A stretch of 64,000 nucleotides of DNA from Octopus vulgaris (Eukaryota). The stretch is taken from positions 23,808,001 through 23,872,000 of the forward strand of contig OX597814.1 in NCBI GenBank assembly GCA_951406725.2, read 5' to 3'. The translations under genes were made by a program, and so were the position numbers. Positions 2,046-46,063 of the stretch are shown here, piece by piece (position 1 is the stretch's first letter; every line of letters starts with the position of its first letter). The notes beneath the pieces were generated by a model, which worked only from the letters and a program-made list of their open reading frames with translations, did not search any database and was not told where the DNA came from.

Positions 2046-2577
2046 CATCATCATCATCATTGTTTAATGTCTGCCTTCCATACTAGCATGGGTTGGATGG
2101 TTTGACAGGAGTTGACCAAGCAGAAGACTACACCAGACCTCTGTGTCTATTTCAGTATGGTTTTTACTGCTGGATACCCTTCCTAACACCAACCACCCAG
2201 AAGAATGAACTGAGTGTTTTTTATGTGGCACTAGAATAAACAAGGTCAGCTTTGACATGTTTTTTACAGCTGGGTGCCCTCCCAAATTCCAGCCACTTTA
2301 CAGTGTGAACTGGATGCTTTTTGTGTGACATCAGCACTGGCGGAGTTACCAAGTAACTTGCAAGACAAAACCTTTGAATGGGGAGGGGGCATTGGAGGAG
2401 GTAATCTTATATCAGATGATGAAAGGTTAGAATGTGACAGAAAGACAGAAACAGGTGTCTTGCTGTAGAGAAGGTACATGGTTATCCAACAGAGAGAGAG
2501 AGAGATAGTGATCAGGAATGAGGACAGAATCAGGTGTGCTGCTGTAAAGGGGATAACTGATTACTCAACCAGAAGGA

Positions 2578-2609
<32 letters not shown>

Positions 2610-2760
2610 TGAAAAACAGCAAGAGTATAACAGAGACCAAGAAAGAGATGGTTGTGAAGTGCCAGGGCATACCTTCAAGTTATGGAGGTCATAATATAAG
2701 TAGGGATTAGGGATGTTGAATGCAGTGATAGTGAGAACCTGGGTATATAGAGGGTATATA
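2046..2760 (-). mobile_element. RTE-type 3' UTR/tail fragment ending in (GAT)n
   Basis: Reverse complement of the ccaacccatgctagcatggaa...gttaaa(tga)n tail shared with the LINE at 7440-7615. The upstream part matches 48240-48875. Confidence 0.7.
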
Positions 2761-2839
2761 GAGGTATCAGGGGACTATTTAACAGATATTTCCTCTGTTG
2801 GCAACCTATGATTCCTCTGACTTTATAAAAGGCAGCCTA

Positions 2840-3214
2840 GTGGAGGCGCAATGGCCCAGTGGTTAGAGCAGCGGACTCGCGGTTTTGATTCCCAGACCAG
2901 GCGTTGTGAGTGTTTATTGAGCGAAAACACCTAAAAAGCTCCACGAGGCTCCGGCAGGGGATGGTGGTGATCCCTGCTGTACTCTTTCACCACAACTTTC
3001 TCTCACTCTTACTTCCTGTTTCTGTTGTACCTGTATTTCAAGGGGCCGGCCTTGTCACTCTCTGTGTCATGCTGAATATCCCCGAGAACTACGTTAAGGG
3101 TGCACGTGTCTGTGGAGTGCTCAGCCACTTACACGTTAATTTCACGAGCAGGCTGTTCCGTTGATTCGGATCGACCGGAACCCTCATCATCGTAACCGAC
3201 GGAGTGCTTCCAAT
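2840..3214 (+). mobile_element. tRNA-derived SINE, different tail subfamily, 10-bp TSD
   Basis: Head gtggaggcgcaatggcccagtggttagagc, like the 405 family. Exact TSD aggcagccta at 2830-2839 and 3215-3224. Confidence 0.9.
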
Positions 3215-3627
3215 AGGCAGCCTATACTAGGCATGCAAGCAAAGTGTGGTGCTGTAAAGCCATGGGGCATAATGTTGATAAAATGGTAAGTAGTGACTGC
3301 AGAAGAATATGTAACCCATTAGTGAAAATTTCTATCGACATAACTGCTACTGAATATCAGAGGTGTTGAGCAAGGCATTTAAGAGTGACACCTATATACT
3401 GGTTTGAATATGGAATAAAAAGTGATAAAGAATGCACTCAATTGTGTGGAAAAGTGGACTAAACAGAACAGGAGAAGACACTTGAGATGGAAGAGTCACT
3501 GAAAAGGTCACAGATGTGTGACGAAAGATTTCCAGGCAATAGACATAAGATACAATAAGAACAATAATAAACAAGAGAAGAATAAATATATAATGCATGT
3601 GTTTATTTGGCAAAAAAAAGTGACCAT

Positions 3628-4056
3628 AGGTGCAGGAGTGGCTGTGTGGTAAGTAGCTTGCTAATCAACCACATGGTTCCGGGTTCAGTCCCACTGCGTG
3701 GCATCTTGGACAAATGTCTTCTGCTATAGCCCCGGGCCAACCAATACCTTGTGAGTGGATATGGTAGACGGAAACTGAAAGAAGCCTGTCGTATATATGT
3801 ATATATATATGTATATGTATGTGTGTGTATGTGTTTGTGTGTCTGTGCTTGTCTCCCTAGCATTGCTTGACAACCGATGCTGGTGTGTTTATGTCCCCAT
3901 CACTTAGTGGTTCGGCAAAAGAGACCGATAGAATAAGTCCTCGGCTTACAAAGAATAAGTCCCGGGGTCGATTTGATCGACTAAAGGCGGTGCTCCAGCA
4001 TGGCCGCAGTCAAATGACTGAAACAAGTAAAAGAGTAAAAGAGAGTAAAAGAGTAT
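3628..4056 (+). mobile_element. tRNA-headed SINE with internal (TA)/(TG) microsatellite and (AAAGAGT)n tail
   Basis: Head gagtggctgtgtggtaagtagc...ccgggttcagtccc. Full copies at 13305-13770 and 23827-24219. Partial copies near 14.9, 16.7, 18.4, 39.8, 45.2 and 46.1 kb. Confidence 0.9.
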
Positions 4057-4229
4057 ACCAAAATACAACAATATTTCTCTTTGCTCTTTTCTTTTAACAA
4101 CCGCTTTCCAAGCTGGTATGTGTTGGATAGTTTGACATGGAACCGGCTAGCAGGGAGCTGTCCAGATACATTTGACAAAATGCCGAACTACAAACATGGA
4201 TGCCACAGGAATAACACGAATAATAATAA

Positions 4230-7200
4230 AAACATAGGTATAAAGTCTTCTGGCAAGGTAACATGGATGGGGTAGGGGGTGTAGGCATTCTCCTTGCGGA
4301 GAAATGGGTGGATAAGGTCATAGAGGTTGTCAGGGTTTGCGATAGAGTGCTTAAGCTCAGGTTAGTCCTACAGAGTGGCACAGCTACGATTATCTCCGCC
4401 TATGCCCCACATGTGGGACTACCAAATGATCAGAAGGACCACTTTTATGATACCCTTCTACAGGCTACCCCAAAGACTAGTGGCAAGGACCTCATCTTTG
4501 TGGGTGGAGACTTTAATGGGCATGTTGGGCGGGAATCGGGTATCTTCACTGGGGTACACGGTGGCCATGGTATTGGCACCAGAAATGATGAGGGAACTAG
4601 ACTTTTAATCTGCAACACTAACTTCAGGAAGCCTGACTGCCACCTTATAACTTATCAGTCAGGAGACTCCGCTAGCCAAATAGACTTCATCCTCACCAGA
4701 CAGCGGGATGCAGGGTCGCTCTTAAATACAAAGACCCTCCCGGGTGAAGAATGTATCCCTCAGCATAGGCTAATCATTAGTGACTTTAGGCTTGAGGCCA
4801 GAAGGACTCCAAGAAACAGACCAATCCAGAAAAGAAGGATTTGGAAGCTAAAGAACCCTTCACATGGTCAGAGATTTAGGGACATCCTCATCAAGAAATT
4901 TGATGAGAGAGAGGAGGAGCTACAGACGTTGGACAAAGAAGGTAGCTGGAAATTCCTACCGGACTGCTTGCTGAGTGCCACAGACCAAGTCTGTGGATGG
5001 TGCAAAGTCCCTTCCAGACCTAGAGTTACGTGGTGGTGGAATAGTGCAGTAGACAAAGCCATTAGTGCAAAGAAACAGGCCTGGAGAGCCTGGAGGGATG
5101 GGGTAGCAGGGAACTGTACCAAGTAGCCAAAAGGGAGGCTGGGCGGCAGGTATACATAGCCAAAGATATAGCAGAAAAGAAGAAGTTTGCCAATGTCCAG
5201 CGACGTGAGGACCAAAGAACTGAGGTATTTCGGATTGCTAGACAGTGTGTGAGAGAAAATAGTGAGGTTACAGGAGAGAAATGTGTCCGCATGGATGATG
5301 GGGCACTTGCTTTTAATGTTGGTGAAAAGAAAGAGGCTTGGAGAAGCCATTATGAAAGACTGCTGAATGTGGAGAATGAATGGGAGGAGGAGAGCCTGAC
5401 AAATGTTGACCCAGTAGAGGGACCAGCTATCCAAATAGAGAGCTCCCTTGTAGTTAAGGCAATTAAGGGTATGAAACCAGGTAAAGCCCCCGGCCCATCA
5501 GGTATCACTGCTGAGATGCTTAAAACAGCTGGTTATGTGGGCTATGGCCTAGTCACCCGTATTGTAAACCAGGTAGTTCATAATGGAGTCATACCCAATG
5601 ACTGGCGTAGCAGCACCATAGTCAACTGCTACAAGGGTAAGGGTGATGCTCTAGATAGAAATAACTACAGGGGTATTAAACTGTTGGATCAGGTGATGAA
5701 GGTCACAGAGAGGGTCATAACCCATCTCATTAGGGAGAGAATTTGCTTAGATGAGATGCAGGTCGGTTTTGTGCTGGGTAGAAGCACCACTGATGCTATA
5801 TTCCTGGTCCGACAAATGCAGGAGAAGTACCTAGCTAAAGATAAACCCCTCTACATAGCTTTTGTGGACTTGGAGAAAGCCTTTGACAGGGTCCCCCGAT
5901 CCCTTATCTGGTGGTCGATGCGGAAACTGGAGATTGCCGAATGGCTAATAAGGGCTGTACAGGCCCTATACAGAGAGGCTGTCAGCAAGGTTAGGATTGG
6001 CAACGAATATAGTGAAGAATTCCGGGTAGAAGTAGGTGTACACCAAGGCTCAGCCCTCAGTCCCCTTTTATTCATCATAGTCCTCCAGGCAATAACAGAG
6101 GAATTCAAAACAGGTTGCCCCTGGGAGCTCCTCTATGCTGATGACCTGGCTCTCATAGCAGAATCACTACCGGAACTAGAAAAGAAATTTCGGGTGTGGA
6201 AACAAGGGTTAGAATCAAAGGGCCTTAGAGTAAATGTAGCAAAGACCAAAGTTATAGTAAGCAGAAAGGCGAACTCAGCACACACCCCATTGGGCAGGTG
6301 GCCCTGCTCGATCTGTAGGAAAGGTGTAGGTAGAAACTCCATAAGATGCACCCAGTGTAAGCTATGGACACATAAGAGGTGCAGCAACATCAAAGGGAAA
6401 TTAACTGATAAGATAGCTTTCATGTGCGGCAGATGCACAGGGACAATAGACACCACAAATACTCAGAAAACAGATTCCATCACACTCCAGGGGGAGAAAC
6501 TAGAAGTAGTTGATAGTTTCCACTACCTGGGTGACCAAGTTAGTAGTGGAGGTGGATGCTCAGAGAGTGTCACCACTAGAATACGAATAACCTGGGCAAA
6601 GTTTAGAAAGCTCCTACCCCTACTGGCAACAAAGCGTCTCTCACGTGAAAGGTAGATTGTATGATGCATGTGTGCGAACTGCCATGCTTCACGGTAGTGA
6701 AACATGGGCCGTGACTGCAGAGGACATGCATAGACTTAAAAGAAATGAAGCTAGCATGATCCGCTGGATGTGTAATGTCAGTGTGCATGCACGACAGAGT
6801 GTAAGCACCCTGAGAGAAATGCTGGACATAAGAAGCATCAGATGCGGTGTGCAAGAGCGACGCTTGCGATGGTATGGTCATGTACTGCAGATGGATGAGG
6901 AGAGATGTGTGAAGAAGTGCTGCTCCCAAACAGTTGAAGGAATCAGGGGAGAGGTAGACCCAGGAAGACATGGGATGAGGTAGTCAAGCATGACCTCAGA
7001 GCGTTGGGCCTCACTGAGGCAATGGCGAAGGACCGAGATCTCTGGAGATGTGCTGTGACTGCAAAGACCCGGGCTGCTTCCGGCACCAGTTCCACATAGC
7101 CCCTGCCCATTCAAAATACCTTGGATCCCAGAACATCCTGCTGTGCTTGAGTGGACCTGTTGAGTCAAGTACATGAACATCGAAATAAATATCAATGGAA

Positions 7201-7615
7201 ATAGTAGTTGTAATACCTGTGCCGGTGGCACATAAAAAGCACCATCCGAACGTGGCCGATGCCAGCGCCGCCTTGGCTGGCTTCTGTGCCGGTGGCACAT
7301 AAAAAGCACCATCCGAATGTGGCCGATGCCAGCACCGCCTTGGCTGGCTTTCGTGCCGGTGGCACGTTAAAAGCACCAACCGATCGTGGCCGATGCCAGA
7401 CACCCCAGGCACCTGTGCCGGTGGCACGTAAAAAGCACCCACTACACTCGCGGAGTGGTTGGTGATAGGAAGGGCATCCAGCTGTAGAAACACTGCCAGA
7501 TCAAACTGGAGCCTGGTGCAGCCTCTGGCTTCCCAGACCCCGGTCGAACTTTCCAACCCGTGCTAGCACGGAAAACAGACGTTAAACGATGATGATGATG
7601 ATAATGATGATGATT
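4230..7615 (+). mobile_element. RTE-clade LINE, 5'-truncated and frameshifted (APE endonuclease + RT + PHD-like insert)
   Basis: APE motifs YKVFWQG, GVGILL, SAYAP, GDFNGHVG, SQIDFIL, QHRL (ORF 4263-5126). RT motifs KAPGPSGI, NYRGIKLL, FVDLEKAFDRV, GVHQGSALSPLLF, YADD at 6134-6145 (ORF 5249-6655). C-terminal HGSETW, RRLRWYGHV, GRPRKTW. Frameshifts near 5100, 6645 and 6950; stop near 7099; (GAT)n tail. Confidence 0.95.
7219..7440 (+). repeat. Tandem 62-67 bp units in the LINE 3' UTR, each with a GTGCC-GGT-GGCAC hairpin
   Basis: gtgccggtggcac starts at 7219, 7286, 7353 and 7415, each followed by an A-run and gcacc. Confidence 0.9.
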
Positions 7616-10311
7616 ATAATCATACTGATGATGAGGAGGATTATTGTGAGATATTTATGAATTGCATGTTTTTTCTAGTCCGTACCAGTATAGAAAAGCA
7701 GCTGTAAAATAATGATGATGATGATGATGATGATAAAAATAATGATGATGATTAATCTACAAAATGGCAATGTCATCAAATGTTGGCATAATTAAAAATA
7801 TATAAATGGATATTCTATCATTAAAAAAAAAAGTGTAAATTGAGGCAAAGAAAACTTTCCACTTATTTTACTTGATATAATATCATTAAGAATAAGTTTC
7901 ATAATGAGAAGAAAATTTATTGAAATGAATAGAAACATTTTAATTGAATATTTTGTGAATGCCTTCTTATTTTATATTAAATTACCAAAATTGCAAATGT
8001 GTTATCAGTTGATATTACTCTGTTACACCATAGACATTAATTTGAGCTGAAATGTGCAACGCCTTCCCAATTCCTAAAAGCTAGTTGCAATAGCAGAAGC
8101 TGAGATGTAATTAAAATATAAACCATAACAAAGCAATTTATTAGATAAAAAAAAAAAACATTATGAAAACAGTTAAAAGCATCTTTCCATAATCAGAAGA
8201 ATGTTGAATATGTTTAAGGAAGGATAAGCATTTATGTCTGAGCAGTATAACTTTGTAGACTGTCTAACCTGAATGAAAAGGTTCTTGTTTGGCTTAAAGA
8301 TAAAACCTGACCCCTATGGTTCTATGAGTGATTTGTTTAGCATCCTCAGCATTTAATTACAACAATCATCTCTGATTCTTCTAAACAACTTAAATATTGT
8401 GTTAAGAGTATTGAAAGATCAAAGATCAGACTTAAATGTCTCATGAAAATCCAAATACCTAACAGCAGAAAACGTCTCAGACAGCACTGTATTTACAGTA
8501 GCTTATAAACAGTCAGCAGAATTCATAGTAATCTAGCAGAAACTATTTGAAACCATTGACAAGTTTACTTGATATTTGTCTTTTATTATTTTGCTGCCAT
8601 TCTAAAGAGGATAGTTTAAAATACAAAAACACAGAACTACAGTTAAAAAAAAATTACGAAAACAACAAAAAAATCTATATTTTTCAAAAAGCTTAATGGA
8701 TATTTGAACAGATAATTTTCTTTGACATCTTCAACATTTTAAAAAATGTGTTATGAGTATCTTGACAACCAAAAGAAAAAGTAATGCTATCAATAAAAAT
8801 ATTAGTTTTTTTATTTCACACAAGTGTTTATTTTTATAAAATAATCCACTAAATTATATTCGAATATATATAGGTCAAATCTAATAACCTATACTTGTAA
8901 CAAATTTCTAGCTAGAAAAATATTATAAAGTGTGAAGAATGCAACAATATAATCAAATATAAACAATTATAATTAATACAGAGATGTGCTAACAAAATAA
9001 AATATCAAAATTTATGACACTCATCCCCACAACAAAAAACACAAGAAACTTCTACATTTTTGCTTGACTTTATAGGAAAAGCTACCAAATCTTCCTGAAA
9101 TCACACCTCTAAATAAAGAACAGACACATTAGATAATGCAATGTTGCATTCCCCATAAAAGGATGGAATGTCCATGAATGGAATGCCAGTGATTATATAC
9201 TTGCTTTATCAGGGCTGACTTCAGCAAAACAGTAACTGGTAATGAGGCACCTTCTACATAGCCATTCAATCTACAAAAAAATAGCAAATAAATTTCTCTC
9301 AAATCACACCTTATAACCTTAAAATAAAAGATAATTGTCTGGATAATATAATCAGTAGATAAAAAATGAAAAAATGGGATCATAAGTTTATTATTTAGAA
9401 CTGAATTGGTGGGGCAGATTACAACAACAACACGTAGTAATGGATCAGATGAGAGTCTCTAAGGCAAAAGTTTCTACAACTGGATGCTCTTCCTGCTACC
9501 AATCCAAAGCCGTTTTTAAGCAAGGCAACATTTCTTTTCATCATTTAAACTTGATCAGATAAGCACACACACACACACACGTCAAGTATGTTTGACTTTT
9601 GAAAATGAGAGAAAAGAAAACTAAATCATATATGCTAGACACCTCGTAGTGTTTTTCCTCAGACATTCTTTACTCTATTCTTTTCTAGCTTTCTTCTTAT
9701 CATTCACCCACGATATTTTACATTTACTTTTCCTTCCTATATACATCTTCCCCCTTTCCAGCCCTATTTTTTCTTTACTTTTAACTGGAAGTTAACATCA
9801 CATAATCGTGTTTAGCTAATTTGATTCACCTCAGATTCAAACAATCTATATTTTCTAAAGTAAAGGAGAATTAACTCACACCTGCTGGGCATGTTAATCA
9901 TATTCATGGAAGCAGATGTTTGAAAAAATCGTTCCAAATATTTTTCGTTTACTTTATACCATACGGAGCAAGACTACACAACCAATGATAGCCCATGTTA
10001 TCAGTTAAGTAATATAGCTTTATGTGATAGTTGCACTGGGTTGCTGATTTTGGTATAGTGATATATATATATATATATATACTAACAATATAGAATGAAG
10101 TCCCTTTCTCTACAGAAAAGGAATCCATCAGGAAGCGTGGGCAGTATATTAAAAAACCGTTACGGTTGAAGTATAAACATCATATAATTAAGGGCTAAAG
10201 AGGGTTATTCTAAAGCCAATACACTGATTTATCCACTTATAATCCGCTTGCTACAGGAGAATTGAAACTGAAAACGGGCAACTAACCTTTAGAAAATTTA
10301 AATTTCGTTAT

Positions 10312-10372
10312 CTCTATATTGAATCAATTTCGGAATTAATCTTATAAAAGATATATTCTTTCTTCAGTAGAG
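10312..10372 (-). ncRNA. Minimal type I hammerhead ribozyme (mirror copy in the left arm)
   Basis: Reverse complement of 10732-10792. Confidence 0.75.
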
Positions 10373-10731
10373 CTTTCGATGGGATATAAATAAAATACTC
10401 ACGTATGATCATGGAAAAAGCACAAGCTAAAAACATAACTACACTTGAGTACATCACTTATATCTAAAAATAAAAATTCTTTGGTCAGCCTCAGAAACAA
10501 CGTCTTGACAGGGACTTCATCCTATATTGTTAGTAGTAAACTCGCTGCGTGCTACGGGAGGACCGGTAACCATTACAATTTGTAGCGGCGAAAGGTCAAG
10601 ACGTTGTTTCTGAAGCTGACCAAAGAATTTTTATTTTTAGATATAAGTGATGTACTCAAGTGTAGTTATGTTTTTAGCTTGTGCTTTTTCCATGATCATA
10701 CGTGAGTATTTTATTTATATCCCATCGAAAG

Positions 10732-10792
10732 CTCTACTGAAGAAAGAATATATCTTTTATAAGATTAATTCCGAAATTGATTCAATATAGAG
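10732..10792 (+). ncRNA. Minimal type I hammerhead ribozyme
   Basis: Stem I ctcta/tagag. Core CTGAAGA at 10737-10743. Stem II gaat..atctt-ttat-aagat..attc. GAAA at 10773-10776. Stem III ttga-t-tcaa. AUA cleavage triplet ending at 10787. Confidence 0.75.
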
Positions 10793-10921
10793 ATAACGAA
10801 ATTTAAATTTTCTAAAGGTTAGTTGCCCGTTTTCAGTTTCAATTCTCCTGTAGCAAGCGGATTATAAGTGGATAAATCAGTGTATTGGCTTTAGAATAAC
10901 CCTCTTTAGCCCTTAATTATA

Positions 10922-10958
<37 letters not shown>

Positions 10959-18962: not shown

Positions 18963-19360
18963 TAAGAGATACCACCATGCTTGAAATAGCAGCCAAAACT
19001 TGACTCTAGAACCACATTAAAAGTTCATACAGCACCAAGAGAGAAGACAAGAAGACAAAATATACTAGCAAAAAAATTTTACTGGATAATTCCAGATCCC
19101 GGATTTCTGACTTTGCATAAGAAATGCTTTGCCTCTTCAGTGGAATATACGTAGCACATAAATACAAATATATATATATATATAACATACGAATACTTAC
19201 ATATATGCAGAGCCAGAAATCCGGGATCTGGAATTATCCAGTAATATTTTTTTGCTACTTTATTTTGTCTTTTTGTTGTCTCTCCTGGTGCTGTATGAAC
19301 TTTTAATGTGGTTTTAGGGTCACGTTTTGGCTGCTATTTCAAGCATGGGGGTATCTCTTA
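18963..19360. repeat. ~160-bp diverged inverted repeat with a central TA-rich spacer
   Basis: agagataccaccatgcttgaaatagcagccaaaac...ctggataattccagatcccggatttctg vs cagaaatccgggatctggaattatccag...gttttggctgctatttcaagcatg..gtatctct. Confidence 0.9.
19089..19146 (-). ncRNA. Minimal type I hammerhead ribozyme
   Basis: Minus strand reads attcca-CTGAAGA-ggc.aaa.gcat-ttctt-atgc.aaa.gtc-a-GAAA-tcc-g-gga-TC-tggaat. The right arm keeps only the 3' half, with gcc restoring stem II. Confidence 0.7.
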
Positions 19361-45388: not shown

Positions 45389-46063
45389 GACTGAGACCTT
45401 TGGAGATATGCTGTGATTGAGAAGACCTGGCAAGTAAAGTGAGATCGCAGCCATGGCTCATGCCAGTGTTGCATGACCGGCCCATTTAAACATACCCTTG
45501 AAGCATTTGGTGATACAATGTGCTTAAGAAGACCTGTTGAGTCAAGTGAAATCAAAATCATAGTCGTGGTCAGTGCCACCTGACTGGTACCCATGTTGGT
45601 GGCATGTAATAAGCACCATTTGAGCATGGGTCGATGCTAGTGCTGCCTGACTGATTCCCCGTGCCAGTGGAACGTAAAAAGCACCATGTGAACAGGGTCG
45701 ATGCTAGTGCCCTCTGACTGGAGCCTGTGTTGGTAGTATGTAAAAAGTACCATCTGAATGTGGTTGATGTCAGTGCCCCCTGACTGGCACATAAAAAGCA
45801 CCATCCAAATATGGTCAATGTTGGTGCCATCTGGCTGGCTCCTGTGCTGGTAGCATATAAAAAGCATCATCCAAACATGGTCGATGCCAGTGTCCCCTGA
45901 CTGGCTCCTGTGTCAGCGGCATGTAAAAAGCACCCACTGTGCTCTTGGAGTGGTTGGCGTTAGGAAGGACATCCAGCTATAGAAACATTGCCAGATCAGA
46001 TTGGAGTCTGGTGCAGCCTATTAGTTTGCCAGACCTCAGTCAAACCGTCTGACCCATGCCAGC
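45389..46063 (+). mobile_element. RTE 3' end with six hairpin-repeat units, between two SINE pieces
   Basis: RDLWRYAVIEKT matches the LINE C-terminus. Repeat units near 45593, 45661, 45727, 45786, 45845 and 45911. Confidence 0.85.

Follow-up and report, generated by a model that had tools for sequence, protein, structure and literature searches.

The window analysed here is a stretch of 64,000 nucleotides of Octopus vulgaris DNA, and in it lies a palindromic insertion with a hammerhead motif on each strand, bordered by TA microsatellites. The locus raises the question of what kind of element this is and how its two unequal halves were made. The preliminary description gave the layout as (TA)n-A-X-B-A'-Y-B'-(TA)n, and this was reproduced exactly when coordinates, mismatches and lengths were rechecked. 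Segment A (10081-10105) is the reverse complement of A' (10510-10534) with 1 mismatch, B (10179-10509) and B' (10595-10925) are inverted arms of 331 nt with a sole mismatch at 10614, and X and Y measure 73 and 60 nt. A repeat search on the window reported the inverted arms as 10172-10509 and 10595-10932 (338 nt, 99%), where the greater length results from TA microhomology that is counted in. The unit was numbered from 10595, such that B' is u1-331, X' u332-404, A' u405-429 and Y u430-489. The palindrome represents a young copy of a hammerhead repeat of ~490 bases that is non-coding, dispersed and found in TA microsatellites. With a probability of about 0.7, we regard it as an insertion of this repeat into (TA)n with ends at two sites, likely made by a Penelope-like RT-endonuclease acting in trans.

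Table 1. Features of the palindromic locus (T1 and T2, the two 3' termini)
Feature	Position	Strand	Remarks
Left (TA)n target microsatellite	10061..10081	.	from sequence
Left arm, u1-u430 (B, X, A)	10081..10509	-	5'-truncated at 10509; 3' end is T2 and faces the left (TA)n
One-sided tail X'+A', ~99 nt between T1 and T2	10081..10178	-	at the left end only
Minus-strand hammerhead copy, minimal type I	10312..10372	-	H17 at 10317
Head-to-head junction of the 5'-truncated arms (u1 against u405)	10509..10510	.	sequence shows no microhomology
Right arm, u405-u489 then u1-u331 (A', Y, B')	10510..10925	+	3' end is T1 and faces the right (TA)n
Y, GC-richer part of the unit, predicted in a long stem	10535..10594	+	fold of the sibling copy L002
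Predicted long hairpin, ~u45-u131, directly 5' of the hammerhead	10639..10725	+	from fold; related sequence in the sister family
Minimal type I hammerhead; helix I 10732-10736 / 10788-10792; core at 10737 and 10773; predicted cut after A10787 (H17)	10732..10792	+	
Right (TA)n target microsatellite	10924..10955	.	from sequence

The assembly around the window comprises 2.8 Gb. When it was searched with 10510-10925, 85 matches were obtained from the best 40 of 1,057 candidates, and those spanning most of the query were 95-100% identical to it. A 22-mer near the right end had 176 exact matches in the genome and none in the control. The first 100 of these 176 matches listed served as a census and correspond to 70 loci on C1-C10; 22 further loci came from other searches and are biased to long arms. 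Flipping the left block of the window had been predicted to restore a non-coding direct repeat of ~489 nt, and the X'-A'-Y order was indeed found in non-inverted copies, with real direct B'-X'-A'-Y-B' tandems at L002, L017, L019, L021, L028, L081 and L089. The two same-strand hammerheads expected ~489 nt apart are present and complete in six of 136 arms, at a spacing of 488-495 nt. Loose contig ends in two DNA runs continue from A' into X'-like sequence, and contigs of the family occur in two runs guessed to be RNA, possibly DNA. The window locus has its two hammerheads on different strands and therefore cannot yield a two-hammerhead tandem RNA.

Most copies of the family are sub-monomeric or inverted pairs with variable 5' ends. 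One unit is exceeded by 19 of the 100 census arms (longest 884 nt), and two full units are reached by none in the family. Within the element no stop-free frame of more than 98 aa was found in the two longest tandems, and tblastn with two proteins of Penelope-like elements (PLEs) gave matches confined to the flanks. The unit has 34% GC and is strongly self-paired, with z = -5.4 as a linear RNA (L002, 100 shuffles) and -5.7 as a circle (30 shuffles). In the literature covered, outside of which lie most subscription papers, Repbase entries and supplements, no description of the family was found, and it may already be named.

The recent activity proposed from the near-identical arms was borne out. 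The window arms have 2 differences over 357 shared positions, compared to a family-wide divergence of 1.0% within loci (102 of 10,119 positions) and 3.1% between loci. The window copy is young, and gene conversion between its arms could have lowered the divergence. The two arms of a locus belong to the same subfamily, and 90 minor and 11 rare alleles were shared over 49 cross-arm pairs, showing that both arms stem from one source lineage. In the locus L022 / L029 (C25), which has two long arms of 725 and 534 nt, the repeats differ at family-polymorphic sites; this suggests a template switch between different copies.

The 3' ends of the arms are fixed at two positions. Of 136 called 3' ends, 130 lie at u324-338 (T1) or u422-433 (T2), the latter interval holding 44 of the 47 ends of the T2 class. 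In the window T1 is at 10925, 138 nt 3' of the predicted hammerhead cut site, and T2 is ~99 nt further. The six remaining ends, up to ~55 nt short, were classed by the nearer terminus, and in several of them a deletion or substitution immediately precedes the end. Almost every called 3' end enters (TA)n directly or within a few bases (by eye, uncounted).

Inverted two-armed loci make up 30 of the 70 census loci and 14 of the 22 others. All 44 consist of one T1 arm and one T2 arm with the 3' ends outward, a pairing that for the 30 census loci has a P of at most 1e-9 under independent ends. Of the 48 single-arm loci, 45 end at T1 and 3 at T2, a ratio to be read with the position of the census motif just 5' of T1: a short arm that ends at T2 is missed when it stands alone, and so is a T2+T2 locus if both its arms are short. 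Four small fragments (L013, L096, L157, L158) were dropped before counting, and arms below 18 nt were not called. Since segment A is the standard T2 terminus, it is not a by-product of the inversion, and X and A together form a one-sided tail.

A larger sister family was noticed with a unit of ~470 nt, 2,739 first-look candidates and a G-C-closed helix II (L083:5557-5960, L172, L178, L219). It has the same T1/T2 architecture, and in L219 three same-strand hammerheads are spaced by 514 and 468 nt. Among sister-family loci with opposite-strand hammerheads the T1/T2 pairing was seen by eye in 7 of 10, the other 3 being ambiguous.

A two-armed pattern of this kind has been described for PLEs. According to the accessible part of PMC8557442, PLE insertions show a partial tandem, an inverted 5'-truncated copy, a one-sided tail of 30-40 bp and a (TA)n bias. 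In the accessible part of PMC11167929, the PLE protein of Anolis cuts and extends both target strands and is predicted to be a dimer; it starts reverse transcription at two internal sites, which define the tail, and needs no hammerhead cleavage. For the octopus unit we propose that a PLE RT-endonuclease, likely as a dimer, would bind the unit RNA in trans and nick both (TA)n strands. Reverse transcription would be primed by one nick at T1 and by the other at T2, with unit RNA of a common source as template. The two cDNAs, both ending early and joined 5' to 5', would form a palindrome of unequal arms that has a tail on one side only. For an arm to exceed one unit, the template would have to be a tandem transcript or a circle, or a template jump would be needed, and hammerhead cleavage is likely not required in each cycle. 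In 24 of the 44 two-armed loci, the window included, neither arm is contained in the other, showing that one arm is not a simple copy of its partner. The intact 781-aa ORFs for RT and GIY-YIG in the genome are also in keeping with the proposal. Against it stand the lack of an autonomous element with a homologous pLTR among the PLEs sampled, the tail of ~99 nt, which exceeds the published length, and the 20 loci with containment, which are also attainable by fold-back copying.

A more specific version, which we regard as tentative, is that the unit is a hammerhead-made circular RNA of ~490 nt, copied by a Penelope RT-endonuclease dimer from two fixed internal starts, one for each target strand. 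It is hinted at by seamless arms longer than the unit, with homogenised repeats, in subfamilies of different age, and a rare allele present in all three passes of L015 points to a monomer or circle as template. A circle is at odds with alleles specific to individual units in L004 and L022, and with the weakened hammerhead of the amplifying subfamily. The allele patterns thus conflict on circle or linear tandem, and the alleles of L004 and L022, together with the G/A difference of the window at a family-polymorphic site, fit linear tandems or two RNAs. If the circle were true, the family would directly record in the genome the integration of retrozyme circles through PLE machinery, and it would serve as a natural minimal trans-substrate for insertion targeted to (TA)n.

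The loci with containment would also be obtained if Penelope-type machinery primed only once, the cDNA then folding back or switching template and the endonuclease resolving the product at the other site and thereby leaving the tail. The accessible part of PMC8557442 ascribes the tail to such EN-mediated resolution, and near-coincident 5' ends were seen in L059, L096 and L157, with small junction duplications in the latter two. Single priming appears unlikely nevertheless, because the 24 loci without containment are not accounted for and 5' ends coinciding to within 10 nt were seen in 4 of 44 loci as compared to 2.1 by permutation (P = 0.15).

Twin priming implies that the arms are copied from one RNA, each from its own part, and that these parts abut without overlapping. 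The 25-bp overlap at the window locus had been taken to match this geometry; in an L1-type event the template would be one linear B'-X'-A'-Y-B' RNA, with the second primer at the end of A'. This part of the preliminary description did not hold, as the overlap is one value of a broad spread. Arms abutting on the template to within 10, 20 and 30 nt were counted in 2, 5 and 9 of 30 cases, where 2.6, 5.4 and 9.6 are expected when arm lengths are drawn from the pooled distribution. This chance level largely refutes twin priming as a general account. The right arm of the window does stop 26 nt past T2, abutment is close in a few loci (1 nt in L090, 8 nt in L103, 11 nt in L025), and with a multimeric template the geometry could still be non-overlapping. 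However, T2 also ends the three single-arm copies mentioned above and long arms, and is therefore a fixed and not an opportunistic site. Also, a rare allele of L004 is found in both arms at the equal template position and is absent from the second repeat, so that this stretch was copied twice or converted later, and a poly(A) end is absent. We consider twin priming very improbable. It is hardly credible that the palindrome is an artefact of assembly, or that it arose at the DNA level as a MITE or fold-back element without any relation to retrotransposition: the accessible part of PMC8557442 notes that such structures trouble short-read assemblies and the window junction is spanned by no contig in 4 other runs (other samples, fragmentary contigs), but 44 loci with their own junctions and flanks follow one common T1/T2 rule, the arms are unequal with variable inner ends and without a fixed terminal inverted repeat, the 48 single-arm copies are 5'-truncated, and helix I of the hammerhead covaries.

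The complete minimal hammerhead reported in B' was confirmed for its core bases and not for all of its helices. At 10.1/11.1 the bases A10745 and C10772 oppose each other as A·C, unless the pair is shifted and preceded by two unpaired A's, and the monomer fold gives helix III a pairing probability of 0. Rfam gave no match at the gathering score on the window, and on a sibling copy 3 weak E-value matches attributed to chance, none of them a ribozyme. The hammerhead was identified by pattern and covariation, independent of Rfam. A degenerate-pattern search of the genome found 1,423 related motifs, here called the superfamily, and 1 control match. In 18 hand-picked diverse rows, one of them mis-framed, double changes were present in all 5 pairs of helix I and 97.6% of the cells were paired. 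The double-change cells numbered 21, compared to 5.3 after shuffling, a figure inflated by relatedness. Each helix I position was paired in 48-50 of 52 distinct motifs. The core and helix III are set by the search pattern and carry no evidential weight; the covariation of helix I shows that the hammerhead structure is maintained across the superfamily.

In the window subfamily u151 is A (81 of 104 passes), which leads to the A·C at 10.1/11.1, and in an older subfamily it is G (18). In the superfamily, G-C was kept at this pair in 40 of the 52 motifs. The accessible part of PMC4209133 describes the pair as highly conserved and reports a minimal hammerhead without monomer cleavage and with low dimer cleavage. 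These data suggest that the subfamily can amplify after loss of the G10.1-C11.1 pair. At the predicted cut site, u193-194, 5' ends were observed in 3 of 136 arms (0.56 expected, P = 0.019 uncorrected) and in 1 of 100 census arms, which gives no evidence of in vivo cleavage. An apparent enrichment there, from four matches at query 278/279, was discarded as L011 moved to u199 after trimmed end-calling. A second hammerhead-like reading in Y-B' (10589-10616) was rejected by eye for its incomplete core, and a regex match at 19140 (-) for want of a credible helix II.

The 5' ends cluster at u28-35 (window 10622-10629) in 11 of 136 arms, as compared to 2.2 expected for this interval, which was chosen post hoc. 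Every arm of the cluster is at most one unit long, and both arms of L148 are included. The cluster may mark the start of transcription, or a site in the AT-rich linker between predicted stems where the RT stops. Arms in L002:1140, L004:1140 and L136:2734 begin at u45-46, at a pyrimidine-tract-AG motif, possibly from a spliced chimeric template. The upstream flank of L002 resembles what we take to be a mariner transposase fragment.

The comparison with retrozymes and Penelope pseudo-LTRs (pLTRs) made in the preliminary description was judged right. With EN+ PLE insertions, as far as the accessible parts of PMC8557442 and PMC11167929 go, the family shares the partial tandem, the inverted 5'-truncated copy, the one-sided tail, the (TA)n target and a hammerhead shortly upstream of the 3' termini. 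Unlike them, it has no RT-EN ORF (RT and GIY-YIG), its repeat unit is the whole element, and a homologous autonomous pLTR was found in none of the families sampled. With animal non-LTR retrozymes (accessible parts of PMC7229834 and of Li 2026, bioRxiv 10.64898/2026.07.22.740005), it has in common a non-coding, low-GC, self-paired unit, one type I hammerhead per repeat, short tandems and co-occurrence with PLEs. The unit is longer than the cited 170-400 nt, the hammerhead is of the PLE minimal type and not canonical, and the longest arm has 884 nt. The accessible part of PMC7229834 defines the canonical hammerhead by loop 1-loop 2 tertiary contacts, and the minimal motif of the window family does not conform to it; minimal motifs are also accepted in the accessible part of Li et al. 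2026. Judged by sequence, the family falls under the definition of a non-LTR retrozyme family given there, and several hammerheads in one arm occur in the family, not at the window locus.

Compared with the metazoan PLE hammerheads in the accessible part of PMC4209133, the motif has the same short helix I, long helix II and small near-palindromic helix III, and both occur as dispersed families with opposite-strand pairs 100-700 bp apart; in contrast, the window subfamily is devoid of the conserved G10.1-C11.1 pair. The Chlamys elements, e.g. MRC1 (PMC8557442, accessible part), are likewise non-autonomous and PLE-dependent with pLTRs and head-to-tail copies, but they are green-algal, mostly hammerhead-free and have a 3' end similar to their autonomous families, a similarity that was not found for the window family among the PLEs sampled. 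In sum, the window family works like a non-autonomous PLE.

Candidate partners were sought among the PLEs of the genome. GIY-YIG loci gave 148 matches among the best 150 of 6,136 candidates, many with open frames of 781 aa. One 781-aa ORF scored 28.9 bits for RVT_1, just under the cut-off of 29.6, and had a GIY-YIG match, a DKG motif, a CX4CxxC linker and a CCHH motif. By these motifs, the 781-aa family probably fits the Neptune/Nematis type as presented in the accessible part of PMC8557442. Its pLTR measures 456 bp, its ends are flanked by TA, its two termini are separated by ~40 nt, and it carries a minimal hammerhead with U3-A8. A look at 20 of the 148 GIY-YIG matches and at 8 longer regions revealed no autonomous element whose pLTR is homologous to the unit. 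In the Neptune-type family, and likewise in at least three further PLE families inspected, hammerheads and pLTRs differ from those of the unit. PLE fragments beside unit copies (L081, L059, L227, L024) look like independent insertions that share TA runs, two wide hammerhead pairs on C1 (5.4 and 11 kb apart) flank no PLE ORF, and L216 has a short EN fragment only. We infer the PLE partner from its footprint.

A young Neptune-type PLE lies at L082:906-1983 and 2245-4588, with a 359-aa frame upstream of, and in a different frame from, the RT-EN ORF; this frame had no convincing Pfam match. Another PLE family was seen at L059:1753-2850 and L227:47-1700, with an ORF end rich in C and poor in A and, near the 3' end, a hammerhead with a variant core; copies of the unit family directly adjoin it.

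PLEs are named as the likely mobilisers of retrozymes in the accessible parts of PMC7229834 and Li 2026, from co-occurrence and pLTR phylogeny. In the octopus, the PLE integration signature is found in full on a hammerhead unit that has no coding sequence at all. The rule of one T1 and one T2 arm agrees, at the population level, with the mechanism of two start sites observed in vitro for one lizard element, and T1 and T2 offer two exact RNA positions and a short substrate for trans-mobilisation. Specific to the window family are the wholly non-coding unit, the ~99-nt tail and the 44/44 pairing rule. Every component has already been described, so the gain is incremental, and the family is of a known kind and not a new mechanism.

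Elsewhere in the window, LINE-like endonuclease and RT frames of 298 and 529 aa, frameshifted, lie at 4230-6655 (+), which we assume to be RTE-like. Related tandem units of 66-67 bp were observed at 7217-7439 and 45668-45934; they are probably a SINE-type repeat and presumably resemble cephalopod SINEs.
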